Source of the DNA: a virus
Taxonomy: Duplodnaviria; Caudoviricetes
Length of the DNA stretch: 64,000 bases
Virus record (IMG/VR): IMGVR_UViG_3300030330_001955
Coordinates: 38,911 to 102,910 of that record
Strand: one strand, 5' to 3'
The notes below the pieces were generated by a model. The model saw nothing but the letters and a program-made list of their open reading frames with translations. It was not told where the DNA came from and did not search any database. Below, one piece after another: positions 22,221-62,532 of this stretch. Position 1 is the stretch's first letter. Each line of letters starts with the position of its first letter. The position numbers were made by a program, and so were the translations under genes.

Positions 22221-22249
22221 TTGACATTACCTATGATTTTTGCTATAAT
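22221..22249 (+). promoter_or_regulatory. Consensus sigma70 promoter heading the fibre operon
   Basis: TTGACA-17 nt-TATAAT, followed by SD aggag and ATG at 22274. Confidence 0.85.
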
Positions 22250-24885: not shown

Positions 24886-25218
24886 ATGGCATCAGCATTT
24901 AAATCAGCAACATCAGCAAGTGTAGGTACTAGTTTAACAACTATATACACTTGCCCAAGTAGCACTACGGTAACTATCATAGGCTTGTATCTTTGTAACC
25001 AATCAGGTGGACAAATAGAAGCCTCATGTGAATTTTTTGACAATAGTGCGAATGCCCACGTAGGGCTTATATCTTCTGCACCAATTCCTAGTGGCTCCAC
25101 TTTAGTATTAGTAGGAGGCGACGGAAAAGTCGTATTAGAAGCAGGAGATATAATTAAAGTACAATCAAACGTTGCAAGCTCGATAGATGTAGTTCTATCG
25201 TATCTGGAGCAAACATAA
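24886..25218 (+). CDS. Small virion beta-sandwich protein
   Basis: MA..FK, IYTCP and KVVLEAGD...DVVLSYLE motifs, frequent in aquatic phage fibre modules. Confidence 0.6.
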   Translation: MASAFKSATSASVGTSLTTIYTCPSSTTVTIIGLYLCNQSGGQIEASCEFFDNSANAHVGLISSAPIPSGSTLVLVGGDGKVVLEAGDIIKVQSNVASSIDVVLSYLEQT

Positions 25219-27665
25219 TGGCACTCATAGGTAAACAATTAGCATTAGTTGCAACACTAGAAGCTAATGCAGTAGGTACTACTGAAATAGTATCTAATTC
25301 AATAACTGCTAGTGAAGTAGCTGCGAACGCTGTTGGGACTTCTGAAATTGCCGAAAATGCTGTTGGTACTTCAGAAATAGCAACAAATGCTGTTGGAGCT
25401 GCACAACTACAAGCTGCAGCGGTCACAGCAGTAGCAGATAACTCTATTGATGCAGCGGCTATAGCAGCAAACTCAGTAGACTCAAGTGAACTTGTAACAG
25501 GTTCTATTGATGCAATACATATTGGATCGGGACAAGTTACAGATGCAAAACTAGCAATAAATTCAGTAATCACAGCAAAAATAGCAGACGAAGCTGTAAC
25601 TACAGGTAAACTTGCAGATAACTCTGTTACTTCAGCAAAGATAGTAAATGGAACTATTGTAACAGCAGATCTTGCAGATAACTCCATTACTTCAGCAAAG
25701 ATAGTAAATGGAACTATTGTATCAGGAGATATCGCAGCAAATACAATAGCAACAGGAAACATAGCAGACAATGCAGTAAATGGTACAAAAATAGCATCAA
25801 ATAGTATTTTAACTAGACACATTGATGACGACCAGATTACTACTGACCAGATAGCAGCGAATACCATTGCTACTGGCAATATTGCAGACAATGCAATAGA
25901 TTCAACAAAGATAGCACAAAACTCTATCTTAACCAAACATATAGATGACGGACAAGTAGGAACAAGCCAACTAGCTGCCGATGCAGTTACAGGGGCAAAA
26001 TTAGCAGATGATTCTGTAGATTCAGAACATTTTGTAGACGGTAGTATAGATACCGCTCACCTTTCAGCAGACGCAGTAACAGCCGCTAAGTTAGCAGATA
26101 ACGCAGTTGTTACCGCAAATATTGTTGCAGGGAGTGTAGATACTACAGAAATAGCAGATAACGCGATTACTGCAAATAAAATTACTACTGGTGTTGTTGA
26201 CGCAACACATATTGCAGCAAATGCTGTATCAGCTGCTGAACTTAAATCAGATGCTCTTGGCGGTCAAACATTCACAGGTAATGTTACATTATCAGGAAAC
26301 TTAACAGTTAATGGTACTACAACTACATCTGCATCAACAAACACAGTTATTACAGATAAGTTAATCGAACTTGCTAATGGACAATCAGGTTCTCCATCAG
26401 GAGACTTAGGTATTGTTATGGAAAGAGGAAGTTCTAACAATGCTTTCATAGGATTTGATGAAAGTGAAGATAAGTTTAGAGTAGGTACTGGTACATTTAC
26501 AGGTTCTAGTACAGGTGACTTAACTATTACAACAGGAACTCTTTTAGCGAATGTTGAAGGTAACTTAACAGGTACAGCAAGTGCGATAGCAGATAACTCT
26601 GTTACTTCTGCTAAAATAGTAAATGGTACTATTGTATCAGCAGACATAGCTGCAAACACGATTGCCACAGGCAATGTAGCAGATAACGCTATAAATGCTA
26701 CTAAGATAGCAGCGAGTTCTATAACTAATAATGAACTTGCAAACAACTCAGTTACTTCAGCAAAAATAGTAAATGGAGCAGTTAACACAGTAGACTTAGC
26801 AGACGATGCAGTAACAGCAGCTAAATTAGCAGCCAACGCAGTCGTCTCTGGAAGTATTGCAAATGGAACTATTGTAACAGCAGACTTAGCTGATAACTCA
26901 GTTACTTCAGCAAAAATATCAGCAGGAACTATTGTAAATGGTGACTTAGCTAATAACTCTATCAATGCAAGTAAGATTGTAGCAGGAAGTGTTACAACAG
27001 CAGAGATAGCAGCAAACACAATTGCTACAAGTAACATTGCAGATAACGCAGTAGATAGTACAAAGATTGCTCAGAACTCTATATTAACAAAGCACATTGA
27101 TGATGGACAAGTTAATACTGCACAATTAGCAGGTAACTCTGTAACAGCCGCTAAAATACAAAATGATGCAGTTGGAGCTGACCAGATAGCAGCCAATGCT
27201 GTTTCAACTTCTGAACTCAAATCAGATGCTCTTAGTGGACAAGTTATGACAGGAGCAGTAGGATTTAGTGGTGTAGTAAATGCACAGAATACTCTAGGTA
27301 TTCAAGATAGTTCACCACCACAGAAGTTCCATATAGATGAAGTAGCTGGGCTAGATGTTAATAGCGGTACAAGTAGTTCAACAGCACAGTTCACACTAGA
27401 TTCATTTAGTGCATCAGTATTTAGAACTGCTAAGTATACAATATCTATAAAGAATACAACAGACTCTGATTATCAAGCATTAGAAATTTTAATGTTCCAC
27501 GATGGAACAACTGTATACTTAACACAGTACGCTTCTATTTTTGATAATGGAGCACAAGCAACTTTTGACGCAGACATAAGTGGTGGCAACGTAAGGTTAC
27601 GAGTCACTCCTGCTTCAACAGACAATATGACTTATAAAGTCATAAGGCAAACAATCGAGGTTTAA
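25218..27665 (+). CDS. Tail fibre with decapeptide repeats (xAVTxAKIAD-type)
   Basis: Two long arrays of 10-aa repeats (NSVTSAKIVN / GTIVTADLAD), each ending ELKSDAL; globular middle and C-terminal domains. Confidence 0.75.
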   Translation: MALIGKQLALVATLEANAVGTTEIVSNSITASEVAANAVGTSEIAENAVGTSEIATNAVGAAQLQAAAVTAVADNSIDAAAIAANSVDSSELVTGSIDAIHIGSGQVTDAKLAINSVITAKIADEAVTTGKLADNSVTSAKIVNGTIVTADLADNSITSAKIVNGTIVSGDIAANTIATGNIADNAVNGTKIASNSILTRHIDDDQITTDQIAANTIATGNIADNAIDSTKIAQNSILTKHIDDGQVGTSQLAADAVTGAKLADDSVDSEHFVDGSIDTAHLSADAVTAAKLADNAVVTANIVAGSVDTTEIADNAITANKITTGVVDATHIAANAVSAAELKSDALGGQTFTGNVTLSGNLTVNGTTTTSASTNTVITDKLIELANGQSGSPSGDLGIVMERGSSNNAFIGFDESEDKFRVGTGTFTGSSTGDLTITTGTLLANVEGNLTGTASAIADNSVTSAKIVNGTIVSADIAANTIATGNVADNAINATKIAASSITNNELANNSVTSAKIVNGAVNTVDLADDAVTAAKLAANAVVSGSIANGTIVTADLADNSVTSAKISAGTIVNGDLANNSINASKIVAGSVTTAEIAANTIATSNIADNAVDSTKIAQNSILTKHIDDGQVNTAQLAGNSVTAAKIQNDAVGADQIAANAVSTSELKSDALSGQVMTGAVGFSGVVNAQNTLGIQDSSPPQKFHIDEVAGLDVNSGTSSSTAQFTLDSFSASVFRTAKYTISIKNTTDSDYQALEILMFHDGTTVYLTQYASIFDNGAQATFDADISGGNVRLRVTPASTDNMTYKVIRQTIEV

Positions 27666-27666
27666 A

Positions 27667-27888
27667 ATGGGACAAAAATTAGATTTTAATATTGAAGAAG
27701 CTGGTATCAAGATTGATGGTGCTGATGTTATTGACGCAAGTAGAAACTTCGAAGGAAGTGTAGCATCAGATAGGCTTGGTAGTGGAACAATCGCAAAAGC
27801 AAGATTACCATTCACTATTTCTACAACTGCTCCCACAGGAGTAGGTAGTACTAATGATGGTCACATCTTCTTCGTATACTCAACATAG
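27667..27888 (+). CDS. Short fibre adaptor
   Basis: SGTI..ARLP and ISTTAP....DGHIFFVY trimer/adaptor-type motifs. Confidence 0.55.
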   Translation: MGQKLDFNIEEAGIKIDGADVIDASRNFEGSVASDRLGSGTIAKARLPFTISTTAPTGVGSTNDGHIFFVYST

Positions 27889-27896
27889 GAAGATAA

Positions 27897-30446
27897 ATGG
27901 CGATATTTGTAAATGATGGCGGAACACTCCGCACCATCAGGTTTATAGCTGTAAACGACAATGGCACGATTCGTCGTGTCAATGAAGTTTATGTAAACGA
28001 CGGAGGGTCTCTAGAGGGCCCTTTTAGTGCTGTACACTCTACAACTCGCTCCACTAATACTCAAACTACTTTTGTATCGGGTACACAAGAAACTTCATTT
28101 GCTACAACTTGTACATTTGAAACAAACCGTGCCACTGATAGTATATTCTTAACAGTTAGAGCTACTACAACTGTCTTTGATACTACTAGAAGTACAACTA
28201 CTACATTTAATACAACCAGAAGTACAACTACAACGTTTAATACAACTACAAACTTTACAACTACAACTACTTTTAATACTACTAGAAGTACAACTACAAC
28301 GTTCAATACAACTACAAACTTTACAACTACAACCACATATAATACTACTAGAAGTACAACTACTGTATTTGATTCTACAACTACGTATACAACAACTACT
28401 ACCTTTGATACTACTCGAAGTACTACAACTGTATTTAATACGACTACGAACTTTACAACTACAACTACTTTTGAAACTACTAGAAGTACAACTACTGTAT
28501 TTAACACAACTACAAACTTTACTACAACGACTACGTATAACACGACGAGGTCAACTACTACTGCGTACGATACAACTACAACGTATACCACAGCTTACGA
28601 TACAACAATCGAGACAAGTAGAAACACAGGCTTTACTAATATAACTTCTGCAAGTACAAATACATCATTTAGTACTGATTACCAAACAGCGACAAGTAGA
28701 AATACAAATACATCATTCTCAACCACATATGGCTCTGGTACAACTAGAAATACGCAGAATATAGTATCAACAAGTTATGGCTCTAGCACAACTAGAAATA
28801 CAGGTAATATAGTATCAACAAGTTATGGGTCAGGTACAAGTAGGAACACAACTAATATAGTATCGACAGCTTATGGGTCAGGTACAACTAGAAATACAAA
28901 TACATCATTTAATACAAGTTTTACAAATAATACAAATACAAATACAAACACTTGTGCAATTGTGAGTACGAACACTACTACAGGTGGAACAAACAATACT
29001 AATACTTGTGCGATTGTATCAACAAATACAGGTACAGGTGCTACAAATAATACGAATACTTGTGCGATTGTAAGTACGAATACTGGTACAGGTGCTACAA
29101 ATAATACAAATACTTGTGCGATTGTATCAACAAATACTGCTCGTATTACTACATTCTTAGTTCAGTCTGGAGTAATAATCGAGCCAGAACTTGGAGCTAT
29201 ACCTCGTATGACTAATACGAGTATATCCACATCACTTGGTGCAAACAACACAAATACTTGTTTTATAGCAAGTACAAACACGACTACAGGTGGTACAAAT
29301 AATACGAATACTTGTTTTACAGTAAGTACAAACACTACTACGGGTGGTACAAATAATACAAATACTTCCTTCATAGCAAGTACAAATACTAATACAGGTG
29401 GAACAAACAATACTAATACTTCGTTTATAGTAGCTTCAGCATACGCTACAAATACTAGTAGAACAACTGATAATGTAATTGTATCTACTTCTTATAATAC
29501 AAGTACAAGTAGAAATACTAACACTTCTAACTCTACTGCATACGACACAAGTACAAGTAGAAATACTAACACTTCTAATTCTACTGCGTATGATACATCT
29601 ACAAGTAGAAATACAAATACTTCTAACTCTACTTCTTATAATACGAGTACAACTAGAATAACTGATAATGTAATTGTATCTACTACATATAACACAACTA
29701 CAAGTAGAAATACAACTGTATCAGCGATTACTTCTTTCAATACAAATACAACTAGGAGCACAAATTATGAAACTGCCTTTGAAACCTCACGATCAAGCAG
29801 TAGGGCTACAGGAACATCAAGAAGTACAACAACAACATTTGAGACAAATACAACTACAGCAAGTAGTAGAGCAACAGCTACAAGTAAATCGACTACTACT
29901 ACATTTGATACAAATACAACTACAGCAAGTAGTAGGGCAACATCAACTTCGAAGAATACAACAACAACTTACGCAACAACTCTAGGTACACTTACATCAA
30001 GAGCAACAGCAACCTCGAAGGATACAACTACTACATTTAATACAAATACAACTACAGCAAGTAGTAGAGCAACAGCGACTTCGAAGAATACTACTACTAC
30101 TTTTGAAACTAATACTTCAACTGCGAGCAGTAGGGCAACTGCAACAAGTAAAGCAACTACAAGTACATTTGAAACTGATAGGTCAACTACCACTACATTT
30201 GAAACTAGTAGTTCAACAGGTTCAGTATTTAACACTACAAGGTCTACGACCTCCACGTTTGATACTACAAGGGCAACAGATACAACAATTACAACTGATC
30301 ATCTGACAACTATTGCGACTGCAACAGGAACTCAGATTTTTGAAAGAATAACCGCCTCTCAGGCAGGAACTATATTTGATACAGAAGTAGCAAGTATAGA
30401 AGACTTTGGTGCTTCCTACTGGGACGGCTCACAATGGAGCGATTAG
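27897..30446 (+). CDS. Thr/Ser/Asn-rich mucin-like fibre protein with mirror-symmetric repeats
   Basis: 849 aa; repeat periods 10-22-16-18 | apex | 18-16-22-10; VNDGG-like x3 at the N-terminus; SD-like agga; synonymous variation among repeats supports coding. Confidence 0.8.
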   Translation: MAIFVNDGGTLRTIRFIAVNDNGTIRRVNEVYVNDGGSLEGPFSAVHSTTRSTNTQTTFVSGTQETSFATTCTFETNRATDSIFLTVRATTTVFDTTRSTTTTFNTTRSTTTTFNTTTNFTTTTTFNTTRSTTTTFNTTTNFTTTTTYNTTRSTTTVFDSTTTYTTTTTFDTTRSTTTVFNTTTNFTTTTTFETTRSTTTVFNTTTNFTTTTTYNTTRSTTTAYDTTTTYTTAYDTTIETSRNTGFTNITSASTNTSFSTDYQTATSRNTNTSFSTTYGSGTTRNTQNIVSTSYGSSTTRNTGNIVSTSYGSGTSRNTTNIVSTAYGSGTTRNTNTSFNTSFTNNTNTNTNTCAIVSTNTTTGGTNNTNTCAIVSTNTGTGATNNTNTCAIVSTNTGTGATNNTNTCAIVSTNTARITTFLVQSGVIIEPELGAIPRMTNTSISTSLGANNTNTCFIASTNTTTGGTNNTNTCFTVSTNTTTGGTNNTNTSFIASTNTNTGGTNNTNTSFIVASAYATNTSRTTDNVIVSTSYNTSTSRNTNTSNSTAYDTSTSRNTNTSNSTAYDTSTSRNTNTSNSTSYNTSTTRITDNVIVSTTYNTTTSRNTTVSAITSFNTNTTRSTNYETAFETSRSSSRATGTSRSTTTTFETNTTTASSRATATSKSTTTTFDTNTTTASSRATSTSKNTTTTYATTLGTLTSRATATSKDTTTTFNTNTTTASSRATATSKNTTTTFETNTSTASSRATATSKATTSTFETDRSTTTTFETSSSTGSVFNTTRSTTSTFDTTRATDTTITTDHLTTIATATGTQIFERITASQAGTIFDTEVASIEDFGASYWDGSQWSD
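28128..30275 (+). repeat. Nested coding tandem repeats (30, 66, 48, 54 bp units) in two mirrored arms
   Basis: Read from translation: TTRSTTTTFN; TTRSTTTVFNTTTNFTTTTTFE; TTRNTxNIVSTSYGSG; TNNTNTCAIVSTNTGTGA; counterparts in reverse order after the apex. Confidence 0.85.
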
Positions 30447-30629
30447 ATGGCACAAAAGCAATCAGCAGAACGAAAAACAAAGATTACACCAGAGTATGTA
30501 AATAATAAACTAGAACAAATATTATCTGCTTTATTTGATACTTTGGAAGAAAACGAAGATAGAATTAAACATATGGAAGCTCAAGTTCATAAACTTACAG
30601 CTGAGGTTAGAAATGGCAAAGCCGAATAA
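30447..30629 (+). CDS. Small coiled-coil protein (possible fibre chaperone)
   Basis: Abuts the fibre stop codon; heptad pattern. Confidence 0.55.
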   Translation: MAQKQSAERKTKITPEYVNNKLEQILSALFDTLEENEDRIKHMEAQVHKLTAEVRNGKAE

Positions 30630-31512
30630 TTTACAATCTCTTTCCATAAATGAAGAACTAGGAGACTTACCAACTCACTTCATGAAATCGGGCAGTACTA
30701 TGCCACCAAAAGAAAGATTGAATGAGTTATATGAGTTTCAACAAGAGGTAGTTCCAAAACAATATTGGGGACTAAATGTAGAGTATGACCTTTGGTATAA
30801 TACTAATGAACTCTCTACTGTTAGAACTTGGCTATATACTGATTTTTTAGGTAAAGGAATATTTTTTAGAGTAAACTCAGTAAAAATAAACGATAGACTA
30901 TTTAACAGAATAGCACAAGATGAATACTTAGAGATAGATGAAGATAGAATCTCTAAGATTGTAAAGAGTTTAGAAAACAAGTATACGCTTCAAAACTATA
31001 CAGGAGAGTACTATGAGAAAGTTGCATTTCCACCAGGAAGCAACTTACTTAATAAAGTAGTTAATTGGAAGACTTTAGACGGTCTGATAGAAGAGGGGTT
31101 TGTTATAAAACCTCACCCAATAACTGCTCATTTGTTTATAGCAAAAATGAGGCAACGATATGGAAAGCATAGAATATTAGGTAAAAAGTTAAGTGGCCAC
31201 GATATTCTCTGTAATGCAAAAGAGATAGGATTCTGCCCTAATAGTCAAATGGGTGTAGAAGCCATACTACTAGGAAAGAAGATAAGGTCTTTTGCAATAC
31301 CAAGAACTGCTAGAGAGAAAGCACACTTAACATATGAAGCTATTTACCAAGCAATAGCAGGTAGTGATACTACCCTTAGATTAAAAAGACTTTTATCAAG
31401 CAAATATTCAGGAATTATATTTGCATTTGACGAGGACAGGAAGGCAAGAACTGAAAATTATTTTAATAACTTTTGGGATTTTACACTTAGACCTTCAAAA
31501 TTAGAAACATGA
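30613..31512 (+). CDS. KpsC/KpsS-like GT-B glycosyltransferase (putative CMP-Kdo/ulosonate transferase)
   Basis: VIKPHP and NSQMGVEAILLGKKI match the KPHP and NSxxGxEAxxxGK signatures; likely start 30613 after SD gaggt. Confidence 0.65.
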   Translation: MAKPNNLQSLSINEELGDLPTHFMKSGSTMPPKERLNELYEFQQEVVPKQYWGLNVEYDLWYNTNELSTVRTWLYTDFLGKGIFFRVNSVKINDRLFNRIAQDEYLEIDEDRISKIVKSLENKYTLQNYTGEYYEKVAFPPGSNLLNKVVNWKTLDGLIEEGFVIKPHPITAHLFIAKMRQRYGKHRILGKKLSGHDILCNAKEIGFCPNSQMGVEAILLGKKIRSFAIPRTAREKAHLTYEAIYQAIAGSDTTLRLKRLLSSKYSGIIFAFDEDRKARTENYFNNFWDFTLRPSKLET

Positions 31513-32519
31513 TTGATATAATATTATTCGTAGAAAAAATAAATCTTGAATACACACTCGCGTCGTTAGTGAATAAGACGGGGAATTATCGTGTCCATTT
31601 ATTTTTCCGCCCTGAACTACTCGATGAGTACGAATCAGACGGCAGATTAAAATGGATTTTAAGTCAATTTAGAGAAGTATATATCTATCAAACGCCTTGG
31701 TCTTTTAGAAAAACTCCACATAGAATGGCTAGAATTTTATTACAGTTTAAAGAGCATTGGAAAGATAAGCAACCTAAAGGACTACCTATTGAAAGAGTCC
31801 TAATATCTGTTGCGGGTAGTAGACTATTCTTAGGAGACTTTGATAAAGATATTCCTAAGTTAAATCAAATGAATGGTAATACAGTTTACTTCAGTAGAAA
31901 GTTTAAGTATGAAAACCACCCCGCTTATAAAAACTACTATACTATGATAGGATTGCAGAATCCTCCTATCCCAGTAGAGAAAAGATATTTTAAAGATAAA
32001 AGAGACACAGAGTATCTATTTATAGACTGGACAAAATTTAAAGATTTAAATAATAATGTATTATTCTTCCCAAATGGTAAGGCAACTAGAACTGACCCAT
32101 CATTACGAGATGTTGATAATTACATAAATTCTGCAAAAACACATACTATGTATGACTACTTTATAAATGGAACTAATGGAGTAAAATCTGGTTTCATGCC
32201 ACTATATTTTAATATGGGTCTAGATAAACTCATTATTATGGAAGCAATAGGAGCAAAAGACTGCATCAATCATCAGATTGCAATGAGAAAAGCTTTCTCT
32301 ATAAATATAGATGGAGAGATTCTTTGGTCAGATTGGGAAGGAATGTCTACACTTCTTGGATTGTCTGTGCCATGGGACTTATGGGCTCAACAGTTAGATA
32401 ACATACCTCTTAACATGAGATGGCAAATATTCAATGAGAAAATTTTAATGAAAGCTGAGAAGCAAAAGAAACATGTACGTAAAGTAGTGGAAGCAGGGTA
32501 CTTGTTAGGTAAGATATAG
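31509..32519 (+). CDS. Hypothetical protein, possibly divergent GT-A (GT8-like) fold
   Basis: TLASL...YRVHLF and ERVLISVAGSRLFLGDF resemble GT8 core strands but DxD is missing; ATGA-coupled. Confidence 0.4.
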   Translation: MIDIILFVEKINLEYTLASLVNKTGNYRVHLFFRPELLDEYESDGRLKWILSQFREVYIYQTPWSFRKTPHRMARILLQFKEHWKDKQPKGLPIERVLISVAGSRLFLGDFDKDIPKLNQMNGNTVYFSRKFKYENHPAYKNYYTMIGLQNPPIPVEKRYFKDKRDTEYLFIDWTKFKDLNNNVLFFPNGKATRTDPSLRDVDNYINSAKTHTMYDYFINGTNGVKSGFMPLYFNMGLDKLIIMEAIGAKDCINHQIAMRKAFSINIDGEILWSDWEGMSTLLGLSVPWDLWAQQLDNIPLNMRWQIFNEKILMKAEKQKKHVRKVVEAGYLLGKI

Positions 32520-32650
32520 TAAGGAAATTTTCAAATGGTTACACCTGATGAAAAATTTGTTATTCAGCTCTGGCTGTTCTGCGTCAAAGAGTCAATCAAA
32601 AATTCTAAAATTTCAACACAGTTTTTCAAACTATTTCGTCGTAAAAAGAC

Positions 32651-33319
32651 TTAAAGGTTTAAGACTTCTTCTTTTAAATCCGACAGCATAACCCAATTTA
32701 TAATCCCGTTGCGGGACATTTCTAGTGCATACTCTCTTTCTTCGAGAGCATTATGCGGGATTTCATCAACTCTATTTTTAGGAAGGTGCCAGCTAAAAGG
32801 ATTTTGTGCACCTACTTTGAAGGGAGCTTGCTTTGCAAAGAAGTCAAATCCAATGATTGTTAGACTCTTCCAAACCCAAGCCTTTTTGATAAGCCAAAGA
32901 AGTACGATAAAACCATTGGAAGGTCTACCGAGTAGTGAGGCATCTTGGTAATTAAACTCTTCGTAGATTTCGAGGAGTTCTGCATCAGAAAACATTGTGC
33001 AATATGGAATATCTATATCCGCCACTCTTGGCTTAGTTAGATACATTCTTGTACGATTTAGTAAGATGGGCATGTTTCCCCATTCTTTTGGAAACTTTTT
33101 ATAGAACTCGTTTCGTAAAAATCCAGTTGCCCATATACTAAACTTATCACCAATACTATCATAGTATTTGCTTGTTGGCGCTCCTCTTCCCATACGAATT
33201 ACTATATCGTGTGAATCAATAAATGCGCCTTTCTTATAATTTAATAATTCCACAGAGTTACCTACTAGGCATACATTCTTATTTTCAAGAAGTTTACTTA
33301 TTCGTTCAAATTCGCTCAT
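32651..33319 (-). CDS. GT29 sialyltransferase-like protein
   Basis: Sialylmotif L (VCLVGNS..L....G..IDSHD.VIRM), S-like (PSNG...IIGFDFF) and VS (HNALEE). Confidence 0.8.
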   Translation of the reverse strand: MSEFERISKLLENKNVCLVGNSVELLNYKKGAFIDSHDIVIRMGRGAPTSKYYDSIGDKFSIWATGFLRNEFYKKFPKEWGNMPILLNRTRMYLTKPRVADIDIPYCTMFSDAELLEIYEEFNYQDASLLGRPSNGFIVLLWLIKKAWVWKSLTIIGFDFFAKQAPFKVGAQNPFSWHLPKNRVDEIPHNALEEREYALEMSRNGIINWVMLSDLKEEVLNL

Positions 33320-33482
33320 TTGCTTTTAGTAATACCTTTTTACAATGTGGACACTTGAGGTCTATATCTAAGAGTGCAGAAATAGCCTCATGTTTTTTAA
33401 AATCTACTTTTTCTTGTTTAGGTTGATTAAATACTTCTGAGGGTATTGGGAAACCTATATGTTTGTTTGTATTGCTCGCCAT
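33306..33482 (-). CDS. 58-aa hypothetical protein with CPHC (not in ORF track)
   Basis: MASNTNKHIGFPIP...LKCPHCKKVLLKANERI fills the gap between the two GT genes. Confidence 0.55.
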   Translation of the reverse strand: MASNTNKHIGFPIPSEVFNQPKQEKVDFKKHEAISALLDIDLKCPHCKKVLLKANERI

Positions 33483-34093
33483 TCTTCTGCATAGGGTTGT
33501 TCTTCATACCCTTCAAGCCACGGACCTCCGTCCGTAAAGTGAACTGCTTTGGGGTTGAAGATTGTGTAATAATTTATCATATTGTTGTAGGTCGCTGGAA
33601 TATTCCCTATACTATCTGTCCATGAGAAACCGTGCAACCACCCCGCTGGGGCTTGAGATACTTGCTCCGGGTCTAGTTTCTTACAGTTCTCATTATTAAA
33701 TAGCATGAGGGACGACCAATATTTAAAAGGATATGGACGGTTCACTTTGCCGTCCATTTTTATACTTTCCTTTGTTATAAGTTCGGGGTGCTTTACCACA
33801 GACACGCTGGGGCTTGAGTACTCCATTATTTCTGCAGGATTACATCTCCACATAAAATCTCCATCACAAAAAAGAGCATAGCCTTTATAGTCACAGAGAT
33901 AAGGCACGAGAAAACGAGTAAAGGCAAAGTCTGTAGCTTCACCTTGAAAAGGTCTCCAGTAATCTTTTGATTCTTGCAACTTCTTTTTATCGAGAGGTTG
34001 AATATCATGTTCATCTGTAAATCTAGTTATACTTGCTTTACAGACTTCATAAGATACTGGATACTTTTCTTCGTACCCAATGAATATTTTCAT
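33455..34093 (-). CDS. GT-A (GT8/CDI-like) glycosyltransferase
   Basis: IFIGY, TDFAFTRFLVPYL, FCDGD (DxD), WSSLMLFN, HFTDGGPW. Confidence 0.8.
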   Translation of the reverse strand: MKIFIGYEEKYPVSYEVCKASITRFTDEHDIQPLDKKKLQESKDYWRPFQGEATDFAFTRFLVPYLCDYKGYALFCDGDFMWRCNPAEIMEYSSPSVSVVKHPELITKESIKMDGKVNRPYPFKYWSSLMLFNNENCKKLDPEQVSQAPAGWLHGFSWTDSIGNIPATYNNMINYYTIFNPKAVHFTDGGPWLEGYEEQPYAEEWRAIQTNI

Positions 34094-34311
34094 TAGTCTT
34101 TGAACTCGTCTTCTGTTTTATTTAATTCTTCGCCTAGCTGATTGATGTATGCTTGTCTACCTGTACTGACTATTGCAACTAAATTATTCAGTCTAGCAAT
34201 TTCTTGGTCAGCTGCTTGAACATGACCTATTATATTCTTTTGATCGTCAGACAGATTTTCTAGTAAGTGTTCCACACCATCAATAGTGATGCTTTGTTTA
34301 ATTTCACTCAT
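34093..34311 (-). CDS. Small coiled-coil hypothetical protein
   Basis: ITIDGVE...LS..QK start; TAATG-coupled to the downstream GT gene. Confidence 0.6.
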   Translation of the reverse strand: MSEIKQSITIDGVEHLLENLSDDQKNIIGHVQAADQEIARLNNLVAIVSTGRQAYINQLGEELNKTEDEFKD

Positions 34312-62002: not shown

Positions 62003-62532
62003 GCTGTTAAACTATATCTCACTCCTTTGTGTACAGGGTGTGCTTTGTGAAGTTCGTGTCCACAAAATATGACAGCTGTACCTCTATCTATTCTAACTGT
62101 TCTGCCTCCCCAGCTTTCTAATTCGAACTCACCACCTTCGTACTCAGTATTTAATCCTATACTTACTGATACCCTATTCGCGGGCTCTTTATCAAATATA
62201 CGCTGTAGTGTTTCGTTTTCATCTTTATGCCAGCTTACTTCTAAGTCATTCTCATACTTATTTACAAAGTATGTAAACTCATCTATTAAATCAAACTGAT
62301 AAGTCTTTTTATTATACTCATTAGTAAGGTCTAGCAATCTTTCTTTAAATCTTATTTCTTGTAAATCTTTACTAAATCTTTTAATATGTAAACTTCTATC
62401 TCCTATAATGTGAGAAAAAGCGTCCAGTTTAAAAGAGTCCTGGCATAAGTCTATAACTTCTTCACATTCTTGTTGTGTAAAAAAGTTTCGTTGTACTCCA
62501 ACCCAACTATACCCGTTCTTTCTTAGTATCAT
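61981..62532 (-). CDS. 2OG-Fe(II) oxygenase (P4H-like)
   Basis: WHKD, YEGGEF, LHKAHPVHKGVRYSL. Confidence 0.85.
   Translation of the reverse strand: MILRKNGYSWVGVQRNFFTQQECEEVIDLCQDSFKLDAFSHIIGDRSLHIKRFSKDLQEIRFKERLLDLTNEYNKKTYQFDLIDEFTYFVNKYENDLEVSWHKDENETLQRIFDKEPANRVSVSIGLNTEYEGGEFELESWGGRTVRIDRGTAVIFCGHELHKAHPVHKGVRYSLTAWRKGNR

Follow-up and report, generated by a model that had tools for sequence, protein, structure and literature searches.

A threonine-rich fibre gene beside glycosyltransferase-like genes in a marine T5-like phage: a candidate system for coating phage fibres with Kdo

Why does a marine, T5-like phage carry the gene of a threonine-rich tail-fibre protein beside four glycosyltransferase-like genes? 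An earlier note on the stretch of DNA analysed here (the window, 64,000 nucleotides) had proposed that the phage glycosylates its own fibre, and every gene described in that note was found where it had been placed. We consider that the region would be a dedicated protein-glycosylation module for the virion fibre, and that the pairing of fibre and transferase points to an undescribed system by which phages probably cover their fibres with Kdo, an acidic sugar.

Gene order and the threonine-rich fibre protein

The module is preceded by the gene of an 815-aa repeat tail-fibre protein (25218..27665, plus strand; phrog_892 'tail fiber protein', E 2.9e-84), which is syntenic in related loci and whose operon has a perfect sigma-70 consensus (22221-22249) at its head. 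A 73-aa ORF on the same strand (27667..27888) has no family match in Pfam or PHROG, and its position is kept wherever upstream sequence exists (47/80 loci). There follow, also on the plus strand, the gene of the 849-aa threonine-rich repeat fibre protein (27897..30446), cc60 (30447..30629; a 60-aa coiled-coil protein with weak coiled-coil-type Pfam matches only), orfA (30613..31512; 299 aa) and orfB (31509..32519; 336 aa). Their junctions are as tight as had been described: the stop of the threonine-rich gene (30446) directly abuts the cc60 ATG (30447), cc60 overlaps orfA, whose ATG at 30613 is backed by 300-aa homologues, and the stop codon of orfA overlaps with the ATG of orfB (31509). These four genes are translationally coupled and expressed late together with the fibre. 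cc60 is present in 78/80 loci, and phages DLP_6 (AAY80_001) and KVP40 (KVP40.0255) each have a similar small coiled-coil ORF ahead of their orfA homologue.

Converging on these genes from the minus strand are a GT29-like gene (32651..33319; 222 aa) and orfD (33455..34093; 212 aa), which lie in an early/replication-side transcription unit beside RNR alpha/beta. The 58-aa ORF called between them (33306..33482, minus strand) is of uncertain reality; it has no tblastn match among the 80 related loci, and radical SAM/SPASM and SDR genes, with or without ThyX, occupy its site in relatives. On the RNR side, the constant neighbour of orfD is a gene encoding a 72-aa DUF6447 protein (34093..34311, minus strand; PF20045, 28.2 bits, cut-off 27), present in 68/80 loci. 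No transmembrane segment or signal peptide was found in any module component, which is compatible with cytoplasmic modification preceding assembly.

The candidate substrate is indeed saturated with threonine, serine and asparagine (T 36.4%, S 12.7%, N 11.2%); its gene is made of tandem DNA repeats (33/66/132, 48, 54/108 and 48/96 nt), and the protein has no match in Pfam, PHROG or NCBIfam. Position and composition are kept in all 47 related loci with a complete gene (33-46% Thr); the N- and C-terminal ends are 70-85% identical across the clade, and the middle varies, giving total lengths of 668-3108 aa. The unit [FYW][DEN]T occurs 32 times in the 849-aa protein against 3.9 copies expected (z 13.8). 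The N-x-S/T sequons noticed earlier are present in 52 copies, a number that the composition alone would give: shuffled sequences contain 46.3 +/- 4.6 and 12.6% of them reach 52. The picture of a disordered, mucin-like filament also has to be abandoned, because proline amounts to only 0.4% and the aromatic residues follow a beta-strand periodicity, with 89% of the spacings between consecutive aromatics being even versus 44% in the neighbouring fibre. Judged from the sequence, this spacing indicates ordered beta strands, and we regard the protein as a putative ordered, beta-rich distal fibre component that would be produced late, with its assembly taking place in the cytoplasm. The same even spacing and high threonine content could alternatively reflect a purely structural role.

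Predicted transferases of the module

The AlphaFold2 model of orfA (pLDDT 84, pTM 0.83) places it with the retaining beta-Kdo transferases KpsC (GT107), WbbB (GT99) and KrkA, in agreement with the KpsC/KpsS-like GT-B enzyme with KPHP that had been suspected. All of the top 10 Foldseek matches belong to this group (best E 1.1e-5), and VIA-align superposes 218 residues on E. coli KpsC-N (Z 10.0, rmsd 4.0), as against about 116 residues for the next unrelated GT-B (Z 7.4); the head of both structure searches holds these enzymes only, and the predicted fold is their unusual simplified GT-B-like one. The family, to which phrog_26179 corresponds (E 1.3e-43), has the invariant motifs PG[ST]N, K-P-H-P-I-T and N-S-x-M-G...K. 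Its KPHP, invariant even in distant lineages, matches the K-x-H-P of the three known enzymes, and N-S-x-M-G..A-L-L-x-G-K in the C-terminal domain aligns with V-T-S-Q-Y-G-F-E-A-L-L-A-G-K of KpsC. The HP motif is common to beta-Kdo transferases and CMP-sialic-acid transferases (PMC10148158). Unlike these relatives, orfA is a single 300-aa module without a Pfam Capsule_synth match, and by alignment the canonical catalytic Asp nucleophile of KpsC/WbbB is absent: the Q-x-x-x-D that follows a strand in KpsC is replaced by PG[ST]N-L-L-x-K-[VCT], and the segment from that strand to the HP motif has no acidic residue that is invariant across lineages.

The orfB model (pLDDT 88, pTM 0.86) supports the earlier notion of a possible GT-A enzyme. 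Its best match is the catalytic domain of UGGT (Foldseek E 1.2e-8; VIA-align Z 14.1, rmsd 4.3, 235 aligned), followed by GlyE (GT8; Z 13.9), LgtC, LARGE1 and glycogenin, which suggests a GT-A fold of the GT8/GT24 type. After beta4 (96-100) the family carries G-x-R in place of DxD. The gene after orfA in the L097/L166 lineage encodes a homologue of 235-237 aa (hhalign 96%, E 2.6e-9). BoGT6a, described as metal-independent, is also among the structural matches.

The GT29 assignment on the opposite strand was borne out, the protein scoring 33.2 bits against PF00777 (cut-off 23); the family is matched by 34/37 of its homologues and is absent from all 14 control prokaryote genomes. Searched against the PDB, its profile retrieves ST3Gal-I (5.8e-8), ST6Gal1 and ST8Sia3, and also Cst-II (GT42), there along its whole length (2.9e-4). 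The sialyl motifs L, S, III and VS have counterparts in the conserved blocks VGNS...IDS.D.VVR, R.S.G...IGFDFF, SWH.P and H-x4-E; the known GT29 and GT42 enzymes use CMP-ulosonic-acid donors, and the phage protein is a candidate for such a transferase. Unlike the sialyltransferases, it is phage-encoded, has only 222 aa with no stem and, given a maximum hydropathy of 1.45, no membrane anchor, does not conserve the motif L/S cysteine pair, and is paired with a GT8-like gene. Within GT29, the plant enzymes have been proposed to act as CMP-Kdo transferases (PMC11288761).

That partner, orfD (phrog_28018, E 1.1e-51), has 955 homologues, those in phages being annotated as nucleotide-diphospho-sugar transferase. 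It has no direct sequence match in Pfam or PDB, and its distant GT8-like GT-A character, likewise anticipated, rests on a transitive profile match to a GT8 protein encoded elsewhere in the same phage (PF01501, 28.3 bits; hhalign 71% probability, E 3.8e-5, 184 columns) and on the family invariants DxD and HxxxGGPW, which in orfD read D77-G-D79 and H-F-T-D-G-G-P-W.

Association across phage lineages

A threonine-rich protein accompanies an orfA homologue in seven unrelated phage lineages, which include the cultured phages Lullwater, KVP40 and DLP_6: the source T5-like clade, with cc60 between the two genes; the T7-like Caulobacter phage Lullwater (gp41-gp42, after tail fibre gp40); L092/L172; L096-099/L165-166; the myoviruses L214/215/224/230/236/245/251, whose protein has 44-54% Thr; Vibrio phage KVP40 (genes 0254-0255-0256); and Stenotrophomonas phage DLP_6. 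The threonine-rich gene lies upstream of orfA, directly or with one small gene between, in 6/7 lineages; in DLP_6 some 15 kb separate orfA from the repeat, which there is joined to a baseplate wedge protein, the sole such ORF in the genome. [FYW][DEN]T is enriched 6-10-fold in these partners (z 7.5-27), except in KVP40.0254, which has only 2 copies but is the most threonine-rich ORF of the 245-kb genome and shares the repeat styles T-R-S-T and T-T-Y-N-T-T. For orfA, the co-occurrence test proposed in the earlier note is positive in these seven lineages. Among 80 loci chosen for GT29 alone, a threonine-rich ORF was present in 9/9 with orfA and enough upstream DNA and in 0/67 without orfA.

Two lineages have the GT29/GT8-like pair in the same orientation as the threonine-rich gene and orfA, within tail clusters. 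The L092 order, on one strand, is tail fibre, orfD, GT29, tail-fibre assembly chaperone (PF16778), threonine-rich gene, orfA and a tail-fibre N-terminal gene. In L224/L215/L236 the run, just upstream of tail sheath and tube, is threonine-rich gene, orfA, KdsA, WbuC-like cupin, GT29, radical SAM/SPASM, SDR and orfD. KdsA (Kdo-8-phosphate synthase; NF003543, 398 bits against a cut-off of 242; TIGR01362, 390 against 314) lies beside orfA here, and its presence inside the cluster supports a Kdo-type acidic sugar. The source phage itself has no KdsA and no KdsB/NeuA-type gene; a sialic-acid or Kdo donor pathway of its own is therefore not supported, and the donor is assumed to be host-derived.

Fibre glycosylation and competing readings

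Fibre O-glycosylation with Kdo-type sugars is, with moderate confidence, the best explanation for these observations of gene content, predicted folds, motif conservation and cross-lineage association, KdsA included, and from them we infer the catalysis, donor sugar, acceptor and biological effect of the module. Its core, namely that the candidate enzyme orfA acts on the threonine-rich fibre, stands at about an even chance. orfA would be a soluble GT-B-like enzyme with the CMP-Kdo-dependent KpsC/WbbB fold and a CMP-binding HP motif, most likely moving Kdo or a related CMP-activated ulosonic acid from the host pool to threonine hydroxyls in the repeats, with the recurrent [FYW]-[DEN]-T unit as a possible site of recognition; orfB is probably the partner of orfA. 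Since the genomic partner of orfA is a threonine-rich protein, not a kps or O-antigen locus, the acceptor is probably a protein rather than a lipid or polysaccharide. More tentatively, the GT29-like protein and orfD may act on the same glycan, which they would probably extend or cap. The module may alter adsorption, provide protease or nuclease-independent shielding, or change the surface charge. Precedents are Ser/Thr-O-Kdo on flagellins (bioRxiv 10.1101/2020.06.03.131540) and the phage-encoded virion glycosylation of mycobacteriophages (Freeman 2023, as cited in PMC12619734). Against fibre glycosylation we count the apparent lack of the nucleophile and of a Capsule_synth match in orfA and of DxD in orfB, the absence of KdsA and of a KdsB/NeuA-type gene from the source phage, and the fact that the GT29/orfD pair often lies apart from fibres and, in the source clade, in a hotspot interval.

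The main rival, which we consider unlikely, is that the transferases place Kdo-type and hexose residues on host LPS, capsule or another envelope glycan; the receptor of the threonine-rich fibre would be masked, causing superinfection exclusion or sparing progeny from adsorption to debris, and fibre and enzyme genes would travel together as a matched pair of receptor and receptor mask. Such adjacency exists without glycosylation in T5, where the receptor-blocker gene llp adjoins the receptor-binding protein gene. Moreover, the characterised structural relatives of orfA all use lipid-linked or polysaccharide acceptors, phage kdsA/kdsB and glycosyltransferase genes have been read as serving cell-wall modification (PMC12801897), and the early/replication-side pair lies beside RNR in the L218 lineage as well as in the source phage. 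However, the coupling of orfA and orfB into the late fibre operon is late for exclusion, and this proposal leaves unexplained both the constant [FYW][DEN]T-bearing partner across fibre architectures, phage families and hosts and the KdsA in the lineage with the most threonine-rich proteins.

Similarly improbable, and compatible with the core of fibre glycosylation, is the existence of two separate systems, orfA (with orfB) being tied to the fibre and the GT29/GT8-like cassette being independent and mobile, with a different target (a host glycan or small molecule, for instance), and near fibre genes only incidentally in some phages. GT29 and orfD are paired in 75/80 diverse loci chosen by GT29, mostly with no orfA or threonine-rich ORF within 7 kb, although most of these cassette-only loci are short contig fragments and the absence of orfA covers the fragment only. 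The pair often lies beside RNR, glutaredoxin or methyltransferase genes; the DLP_6-like lineage has a cassette of methyltransferase, orfD, GT29 and a third glycosyltransferase (near glutaredoxin in DLP_6), GT29 was not found in Lullwater or KVP40, and the interval in the source clade is an accessory-gene hotspot (Coq4-like, ThyX, radical SAM). With its frequent position among genes of nucleotide metabolism, the pair may still fit the alternative that the earlier note had raised for it, remodelling of host LPS. Two separate systems would not, however, account for the interleaving in L092 and L224, and DLP_6, with its distant cassette, also has orfA and the threonine-rich baseplate protein.

We give still less weight to orfA and orfB being non-catalytic, glycosyltransferase-derived chaperones or scaffolds that fold the long beta fibre. 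The missing Asp and DxD would fit, as would the chaperone gene in the L092 cluster, and dedicated assembly chaperone genes commonly follow phage fibre genes. A scaffold would not be expected, however, to keep the nucleotide-binding HP and several cleft-type motifs invariant over very distant lineages; KdsA is embedded beside orfA, and metal-independent GT-A enzymes without DxD exist, as the BoGT6a match recalls. Glycosylation of hypermodified bases in phage DNA by the minus-strand enzymes is very improbable, as the genome has no thymidylate-synthase-family hydroxymethylase, a TET/JBP-like match reaches only a sub-threshold 15.7 bits, the cassette lies inside tail clusters in two lineages and we know of no report that ties GT29-type CMP-sugar enzymes to DNA. 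It would fit the RNR, glutaredoxin and methyltransferase neighbours, and DNA-hypermodifying phage glycosyltransferases are widespread (bioRxiv 10.1101/2023.12.21.572611).

Read as fibre glycosylation, the module resembles several known systems. In mycobacteriophages too, phage glycosyltransferases are encoded beside structural genes and modify virion proteins, the substrates there being C-terminal extensions of capsid and tail-tube subunits (Freeman 2023, as cited in PMC12619734). Here, in contrast, the candidate substrate is a giant threonine-rich fibre, the enzymes are of the Kdo/sialyl-transferase type and the hosts are Gram-negative. The glycosylation islands for serine-rich repeat adhesins (SRRP) in Gram-positive bacteria, such as that of PsrP with GlyE, combine a Ser/Thr-repeat fibre with cytoplasmic GT-B and GT8-type GT-A enzymes, using accessory Sec export and hexose/HexNAc sugars. 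They share with the phage the long repeat fibre encoded with its own cytoplasmic glycosyltransferases, GlyE being similar to orfB, but to our knowledge they are not homologous in sequence to the phage genes and lack ulosonic-acid enzymes. The Maf flagellin glycosyltransferases form a family that is not known to be related to the phage genes, and no module gene matched Maf in Pfam or NCBIfam. Acting in the cytoplasm, as proposed here, they attach CMP-activated ulosonic acids, Kdo among them, by O-linkage to Ser/Thr residues in a filament protein (bioRxiv 10.1101/2020.06.03.131540). Cyanophage S-SCSM2R, which has an orfD homologue, and the giant viruses CroV and Fadolivirus encode Kdo-8-P synthase with glycosyltransferases (PMC12801897 for the reading of the phage genes); those genes are taken to modify the host cell wall, or their role is left open, whereas here the enzymes come linked with a specific candidate substrate gene.

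Gene map and the Thr-rich protein

The 102.9-kb source contig has a CheckV completeness of 100% and a GC content of ~37%. The coding strand switches near 32.6 kb, with structural genes on the plus strand and the RNR and replication genes on the minus strand. At the head of the fibre operon, 22221-22249 match the sigma-70 promoter consensus perfectly (TTGACA-17-TATAAT with an extended -10 TG). On the plus strand lie genes for an 815-aa tail fibre (25218-27665; phrog_892, E 3e-84), a 73-aa ORF termed orf73 (27667-27888), the 849-aa Thr-rich repeat protein (27897-30446), the 60-aa coiled coil cc60 (30447-30629), orfA (299 aa, 30613-31512) and orfB (336 aa, 31509-32519). The minus strand carries the GT29-like gene (222 aa, 32651-33319), a 58-aa ORF (33306-33482), orfD (212 aa, 33455-34093) and DUF6447 (34093-34311), beyond which lie RNR beta and alpha. 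This map confirms the gene set that the earlier note described, a Thr-rich fibre with transferase-like genes, and its tightly coupled operon is reflected in neighbouring plus-strand module genes that abut or overlap. The convergent gap of 131 bp (32520-32650) showed no intrinsic terminator, none of the six module proteins matched NCBIfam, and no membrane segments were detected in the orfA, orfB, GT29-like or orfD proteins.

The Thr-rich protein, the proposed glycosylation substrate, is made up of several tandem-repeat families and contains 36.4% Thr, 12.7% Ser, 11.2% Asn and 0.4% Pro (3 of 849 residues). The dozens of N-x-S/T sequons reported earlier are real, but their number, 52, is no excess over composition (46.3 ± 4.6 in shuffled sequences), and five homologues gave z-scores of -1.2 to 3.0. 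The aromatic-acidic/Asn-Thr unit [FYW][DEN]T occurs in 32 copies versus 3.9 expected (z 13.8). The spacing between consecutive aromatic residues is even in 89% of cases, compared with 44% in the neighbouring control fibre, and ranges from 89 to 95% where measured in Thr-rich proteins. Spacing of this kind is characteristic of beta strands that bury one face rather than of a mucin-like coil. The mucin-like description does not fit: a mucin-like domain would have Pro/Thr/Ser-rich disordered tandem repeats, and Pro is ~0% in all 47 homologues. The repeat families mirror each other on either side of a unique hydrophobic segment (near residues 415-445): T-T-R-S-T type, S-R-N-T type, N-N-T-N-T-C type, the apex, and then the same types reversed. 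O-glycosylation of the Bacteroidetes type at D-[ST]-x was considered and dropped, because that pathway is periplasmic and the module proteins have no signal peptides.

The four transferase-like proteins

The orfA protein belongs to phrog_26179, a large and marine family for which 124 database clusters were found. It matched nothing in Pfam or NCBIfam, and Capsule_synth (PF05159) was recovered neither with orfA at E <= 1 nor from the genome translated in six frames at E <= 10; the PDB, searched by sequence, returned nothing useful for orfA, orfB or orfD. An AlphaFold2 model of orfA built on 23 homologues (pLDDT 84) is predicted to adopt the modified two-domain GT-B-like fold of GT107/GT99. Its top Foldseek matches were only KpsC, WbbB and KrkA (E down to 1e-5), to which all 15 best structure-search entries also belonged. 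With VIA-align, KpsC-N gave Z 10.0 (rmsd 4.0, 218 residues aligned), compared with Z 7.4 over ~116 residues for the next best, unrelated GT-B proteins. K166-P-H168-P-I-T is invariant in 23/23 clade members, and the HP motif is kept in the homologues from the cultured phages Lullwater, DLP_6 and KVP40. The KpsC-like GT-B with a KPHP motif that had been proposed is thus supported in both fold and motif. The HP motif is common to GT107/GT99 beta-Kdo enzymes and CMP-sialic-acid transferases, its His protonating the CMP phosphate (PMC10148158). A C-terminal block of orfA, N-S-x-M-G..A-L-L-x-G-K, also aligns with KpsC, and hhalign against KpsC-N aligned only a 23-residue block.

The active site was compared with KpsC-N and KpsC-C of E. 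coli CFT073 by anchoring on motifs. The nucleophile Asp of KpsC (D160) and WbbB (D232) lies four residues after a Gln, just beyond the strand leading up to the HP motif. At the site of the KpsC Q-x-x-x-D with Asp160, motif anchoring places PG[ST]-N144-L-L-x-K-[VCT] of orfA, and between this strand and the HP motif no acidic residue (Asp or Glu) is kept in all lineages. D135, a candidate nucleophile from its spacing to the HP motif, was rejected because Lullwater and DLP_6 do not conserve it. Judged by the predicted model, orfA looks like, and would work like, a CMP-ulosonic-acid transferase in fold and motif; judged by its residues, it cannot be filed among the canonical double-displacement beta-Kdo transferases.

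The earlier note's possible GT-A, orfB, is predicted to be a GT-A of GT8/GT24 type in its AlphaFold2 model (pLDDT 88), which gave Z 14.1 with the UGGT catalytic domain (235 residues aligned) and Z 11-14 with GlyE, LgtC, LARGE1 and glycogenin. At the position expected for a DxD after beta4, strand 96-100 is followed by A-G-S-R; the family consensus there is x-G-x-R, with no invariant acidic pair.

The GT29 sialyltransferase-like assignment holds well. The protein scored 33.2 bits against PF00777 (gathering cut-off 23), a family matched by 34/37 of its homologues (best E 3.7e-15). The profile of the phage family matched ST3Gal-I (5.8e-8, with motif L aligned), ST6Gal1 and ST8Sia3, and Cst-II aligned over its full length. 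Four conserved blocks correspond to sialyl motifs L, S, III and VS, the last three named by the motif definitions of the literature. Eukaryotic GT29 enzymes have a type II membrane anchor, whereas the phage protein has no hydrophobic segment (maximum 19-residue hydropathy 1.45). The disulfide between motifs L and S is likewise conserved in eukaryotes, whereas the phage motif-L Cys is present here and replaced by I/L/V in most homologues.

The description of orfD as GT8-like stands on its motifs and on profile alignment, but not on a direct Pfam match: PF01501 gave none at E <= 1 with orfD or 14 homologues. Its invariant motifs, D77-G-D79 (DxD) and H185-F-T-D-G-G-P-W192 (HxxxGGPW), fit the pattern of GT8-type GT-A enzymes, a DxD plus a C-terminal H..G..PW. 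By hhalign, orfD aligned with the phage's own Pfam-positive GT8 protein (71%, E 3.8e-5, 184 columns), the motifs falling on F-D-V-D and H-W-T-G-L-S-S-Q-P-W; no supporting alignment was obtained with three E. coli GT8 LPS transferases or with orfB. That Pfam-positive protein, a distant orfD paralogue of 256 aa, is the product of a fifth GT gene in the left (early) part of the genome, outside the window (genome 9542-10312, minus strand; L171:1057-1827). It passes the Pfam GT8 threshold with 28.3 bits and has a weak GT24 match; in a six-frame genome search, PF01501 was found only at genome 9986-10156.

In many relatives, genes for a radical SAM/SPASM protein and a short-chain dehydrogenase (SDR) lie between GT29 and orfD (L005:3452-4904, L016:4820-7086, L224:7785-9234), in one relative together with ThyX; the window has only the unmatched 58-aa ORF there. 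SPASM enzymes usually modify peptides or sugars, and these genes may provide a further tailoring step. Several clade members (L016:3508-4173, L005:2161-2823, L001:3521-4186) have a Coq4-like gene (PF05019, 33.5 bits) between orfB and GT29; the window has none.

Association of the Thr-rich protein with orfA across lineages

In the window's T5-like clade, gene order is conserved over the entire block in 80 related IMG/VR loci: fibre, orf73, Thr-rich, cc60, orfA and orfB, with GT29, orfD, DUF6447 and RNR on the opposite strand; the Thr-rich protein varies from 668 to 3108 aa and from 33 to 46% Thr. Because this synteny extends throughout the clade, co-occurrence inside it cannot discriminate between readings. 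Across phages, a Thr-rich protein and an orfA homologue occur together in seven lineages that differ in virion type, host and habitat, so that the co-occurrence of transferases with the Thr-rich gene, proposed earlier as a check, proved positive for orfA. The Thr-rich gene is located immediately or one small gene upstream of orfA in six of the seven lineages, and ~15 kb away in DLP_6.

The T7-like Caulobacter phage Lullwater encodes tail fibre gp40, Thr-rich gp41 (215 aa, 26% Thr, eight [FYW][DEN]T copies), the orfA homologue gp42 and a holin. In L096-099/L165-166, a 1279-1781-aa protein with 42-44% Thr precedes orfA and a 235-aa orfB homologue (hhalign 96%). L092/L172 carry, co-directionally, a tail fibre, orfD, GT29, a tail-fibre assembly chaperone (PF16778), a 334-aa Thr-rich protein with 12 [FYW][DEN]T copies, orfA and a tail-fibre N-terminal gene. 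A myovirus lineage (L214, L215, L224, L230, L236, L245, L251) carries, in this order, a protein of 44-54% Thr, orfA, the Kdo-8-phosphate synthase KdsA, a WbuC-like cupin, GT29, radical SAM/SPASM, SDR and orfD, and then tail sheath and tube. Its KdsA assignment is firm (NF003543, 398 bits; cut-off 242), and the gene adjoins the orfA homologue in L224, L215 and L236. The L224 enzyme (L224:5222-6640) bears a 210-aa Lys/Glu-rich C-terminal extension that matched no family and showed no similarity to the module-protein profiles. Two lineages have the small WbuC-like cupin gene immediately before GT29 or orfD (L224:6597-6986, L218:6052-6396); in L218 a gene for a JmjC-type protein precedes the cupin.

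In Vibrio phage KVP40, KVP40.0254 is Thr-rich (29%, the highest of all ORFs in that genome), 0255 is a 72-aa coiled coil and 0256 is the orfA homologue (hhalign 99%). With an unknown 210-aa protein as 0257, these genes follow the window order; they sit in a non-structural region (NC_005083.2 131224-133511, L090), and all four are annotated as hypothetical. Stenotrophomonas phage DLP_6 has a coiled-coil ORF and an orfA homologue beside its neck genes, with orfD and GT29 adjacent elsewhere; a single stretch of its genome is both Thr-rich and motif-rich (27 copies, z 11), namely the last 570 aa of the 'baseplate wedge' protein AAY80_265. An orfB equivalent in these two phages is unproven, as hhalign of orfB against AAY80_003 of DLP_6 and KVP40.0257 was not significant. 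A cassette of methyltransferase, orfD, GT29 and a third GT, with glutaredoxin between GT29 and the third GT in DLP_6, is shared by DLP_6 (KU682439.2 115647-118926, L081) and a large set of contigs related to it; this arrangement suggests a methylated glycan. Scans with Lullwater gp42 or DLP_6 AAY80_002 as single query gave no new loci.

Among 80 loci collected by GT29 alone, which are not phylogenetically independent, a Thr-rich ORF was present in 9/9 with orfA and enough upstream DNA and in 0/67 without orfA. In 75/80, GT29 is tightly paired with orfD, usually with no orfA nearby and frequently accompanied by a methyltransferase, another GT, RNR or glutaredoxin. GT29 is absent from Lullwater and KVP40, and in the window's clade the interval separating the late operon from RNR also gathers Coq4-like, ThyX and radical SAM/SDR genes. 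These observations weaken the full four-enzyme picture, as does the lack of KdsA and KdsB/NeuA-type genes in the window's phage. At its smallest, the conserved unit comprises orfA and the Thr-rich repeat protein, frequently joined by a small coiled coil and a protein of orfB type; some lineages add the GT29/GT8-like pair and Kdo synthesis.

A candidate fibre-glycosylation system and its rivals

The virion glycosylation proposed in the earlier note is partly supported by genomic evidence, which the comparison across lineages substantially strengthens. Given this genomic association, the most economical reading is that orfA would transfer a CMP-activated ulosonic acid, most likely Kdo, onto the Thr-rich fibre and that the remaining transferases would elaborate the glycan. 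Neither KdsA nor a KdsB/NeuA-type gene is encoded by the window's phage; any donor must therefore be host-derived. Ser/Thr-O-Kdo occurs on flagellin (bioRxiv 10.1101/2020.06.03.131540), and a plant GT29 is a proposed Kdo transferase (PMC11288761). Virion glycosylation in mycobacteriophages (Freeman 2023, as cited in PMC12619734) is a further precedent. We tentatively entertain, as a possibility somewhat short of an even chance, a widespread unrecognised phage system in which Kdo-transferase-like phrog_26179 enzymes (the orfA family) O-glycosylate giant Thr-rich beta fibres with Kdo at [FYW][DEN]T, a phage-specific GT29-like/GT8-like pair optionally extending the glycan.

The strongest rival is receptor masking, in which enzymes co-inherited with their cognate fibre would act on the host surface. 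In marine and Gram-negative phages, kdsA and many GTs are routinely classed as host cell-wall modification genes (PMC12801897), and viral Kdo genes are otherwise left unexplained in the literature. The module pairs particular enzymes with one particular candidate substrate, and does so in T5-like, T4-like, T7-like and other phages of marine, soil and freshwater origin. Less well placed is a loss of activity, with orfA and orfB serving without catalysis; neither shows the expected acidic residues, and the HP motif of orfA is retained across distant phages. DNA glycosylation by the GT29-like/GT8-like pair is unlikely, as no hydroxymethylase is present and the only TET/JBP-type 2OG-oxygenase match is weak and sub-threshold (15.7 bits; a 183-aa ORF, window 62008-62184, minus strand; genome 100918-101094).

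To our knowledge, mycobacteriophages are the only phages shown to encode glycosylation of their own virions. If the Thr-rich fibre is glycosylated, our understanding of the adsorption organelles of abundant marine phages would change, a large family of uncharacterised proteins (phrog_26179, phrog_28018) would gain a function, the KpsC/WbbB fold would extend to protein acceptors, and the puzzling eukaryote-type GT29 genes in phages would be explained. Should the Kdo system outlined above prove real, its fibre would be, as far as we know, the first viral protein found to carry Kdo, the KpsC/WbbB fold would have a branch directed at protein, and GT29-type enzymes of bacterial viruses would have their first assigned role. 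The core pair, the Thr-rich protein and orfA, is carried by three cultured phages, KVP40, DLP_6 and Lullwater.
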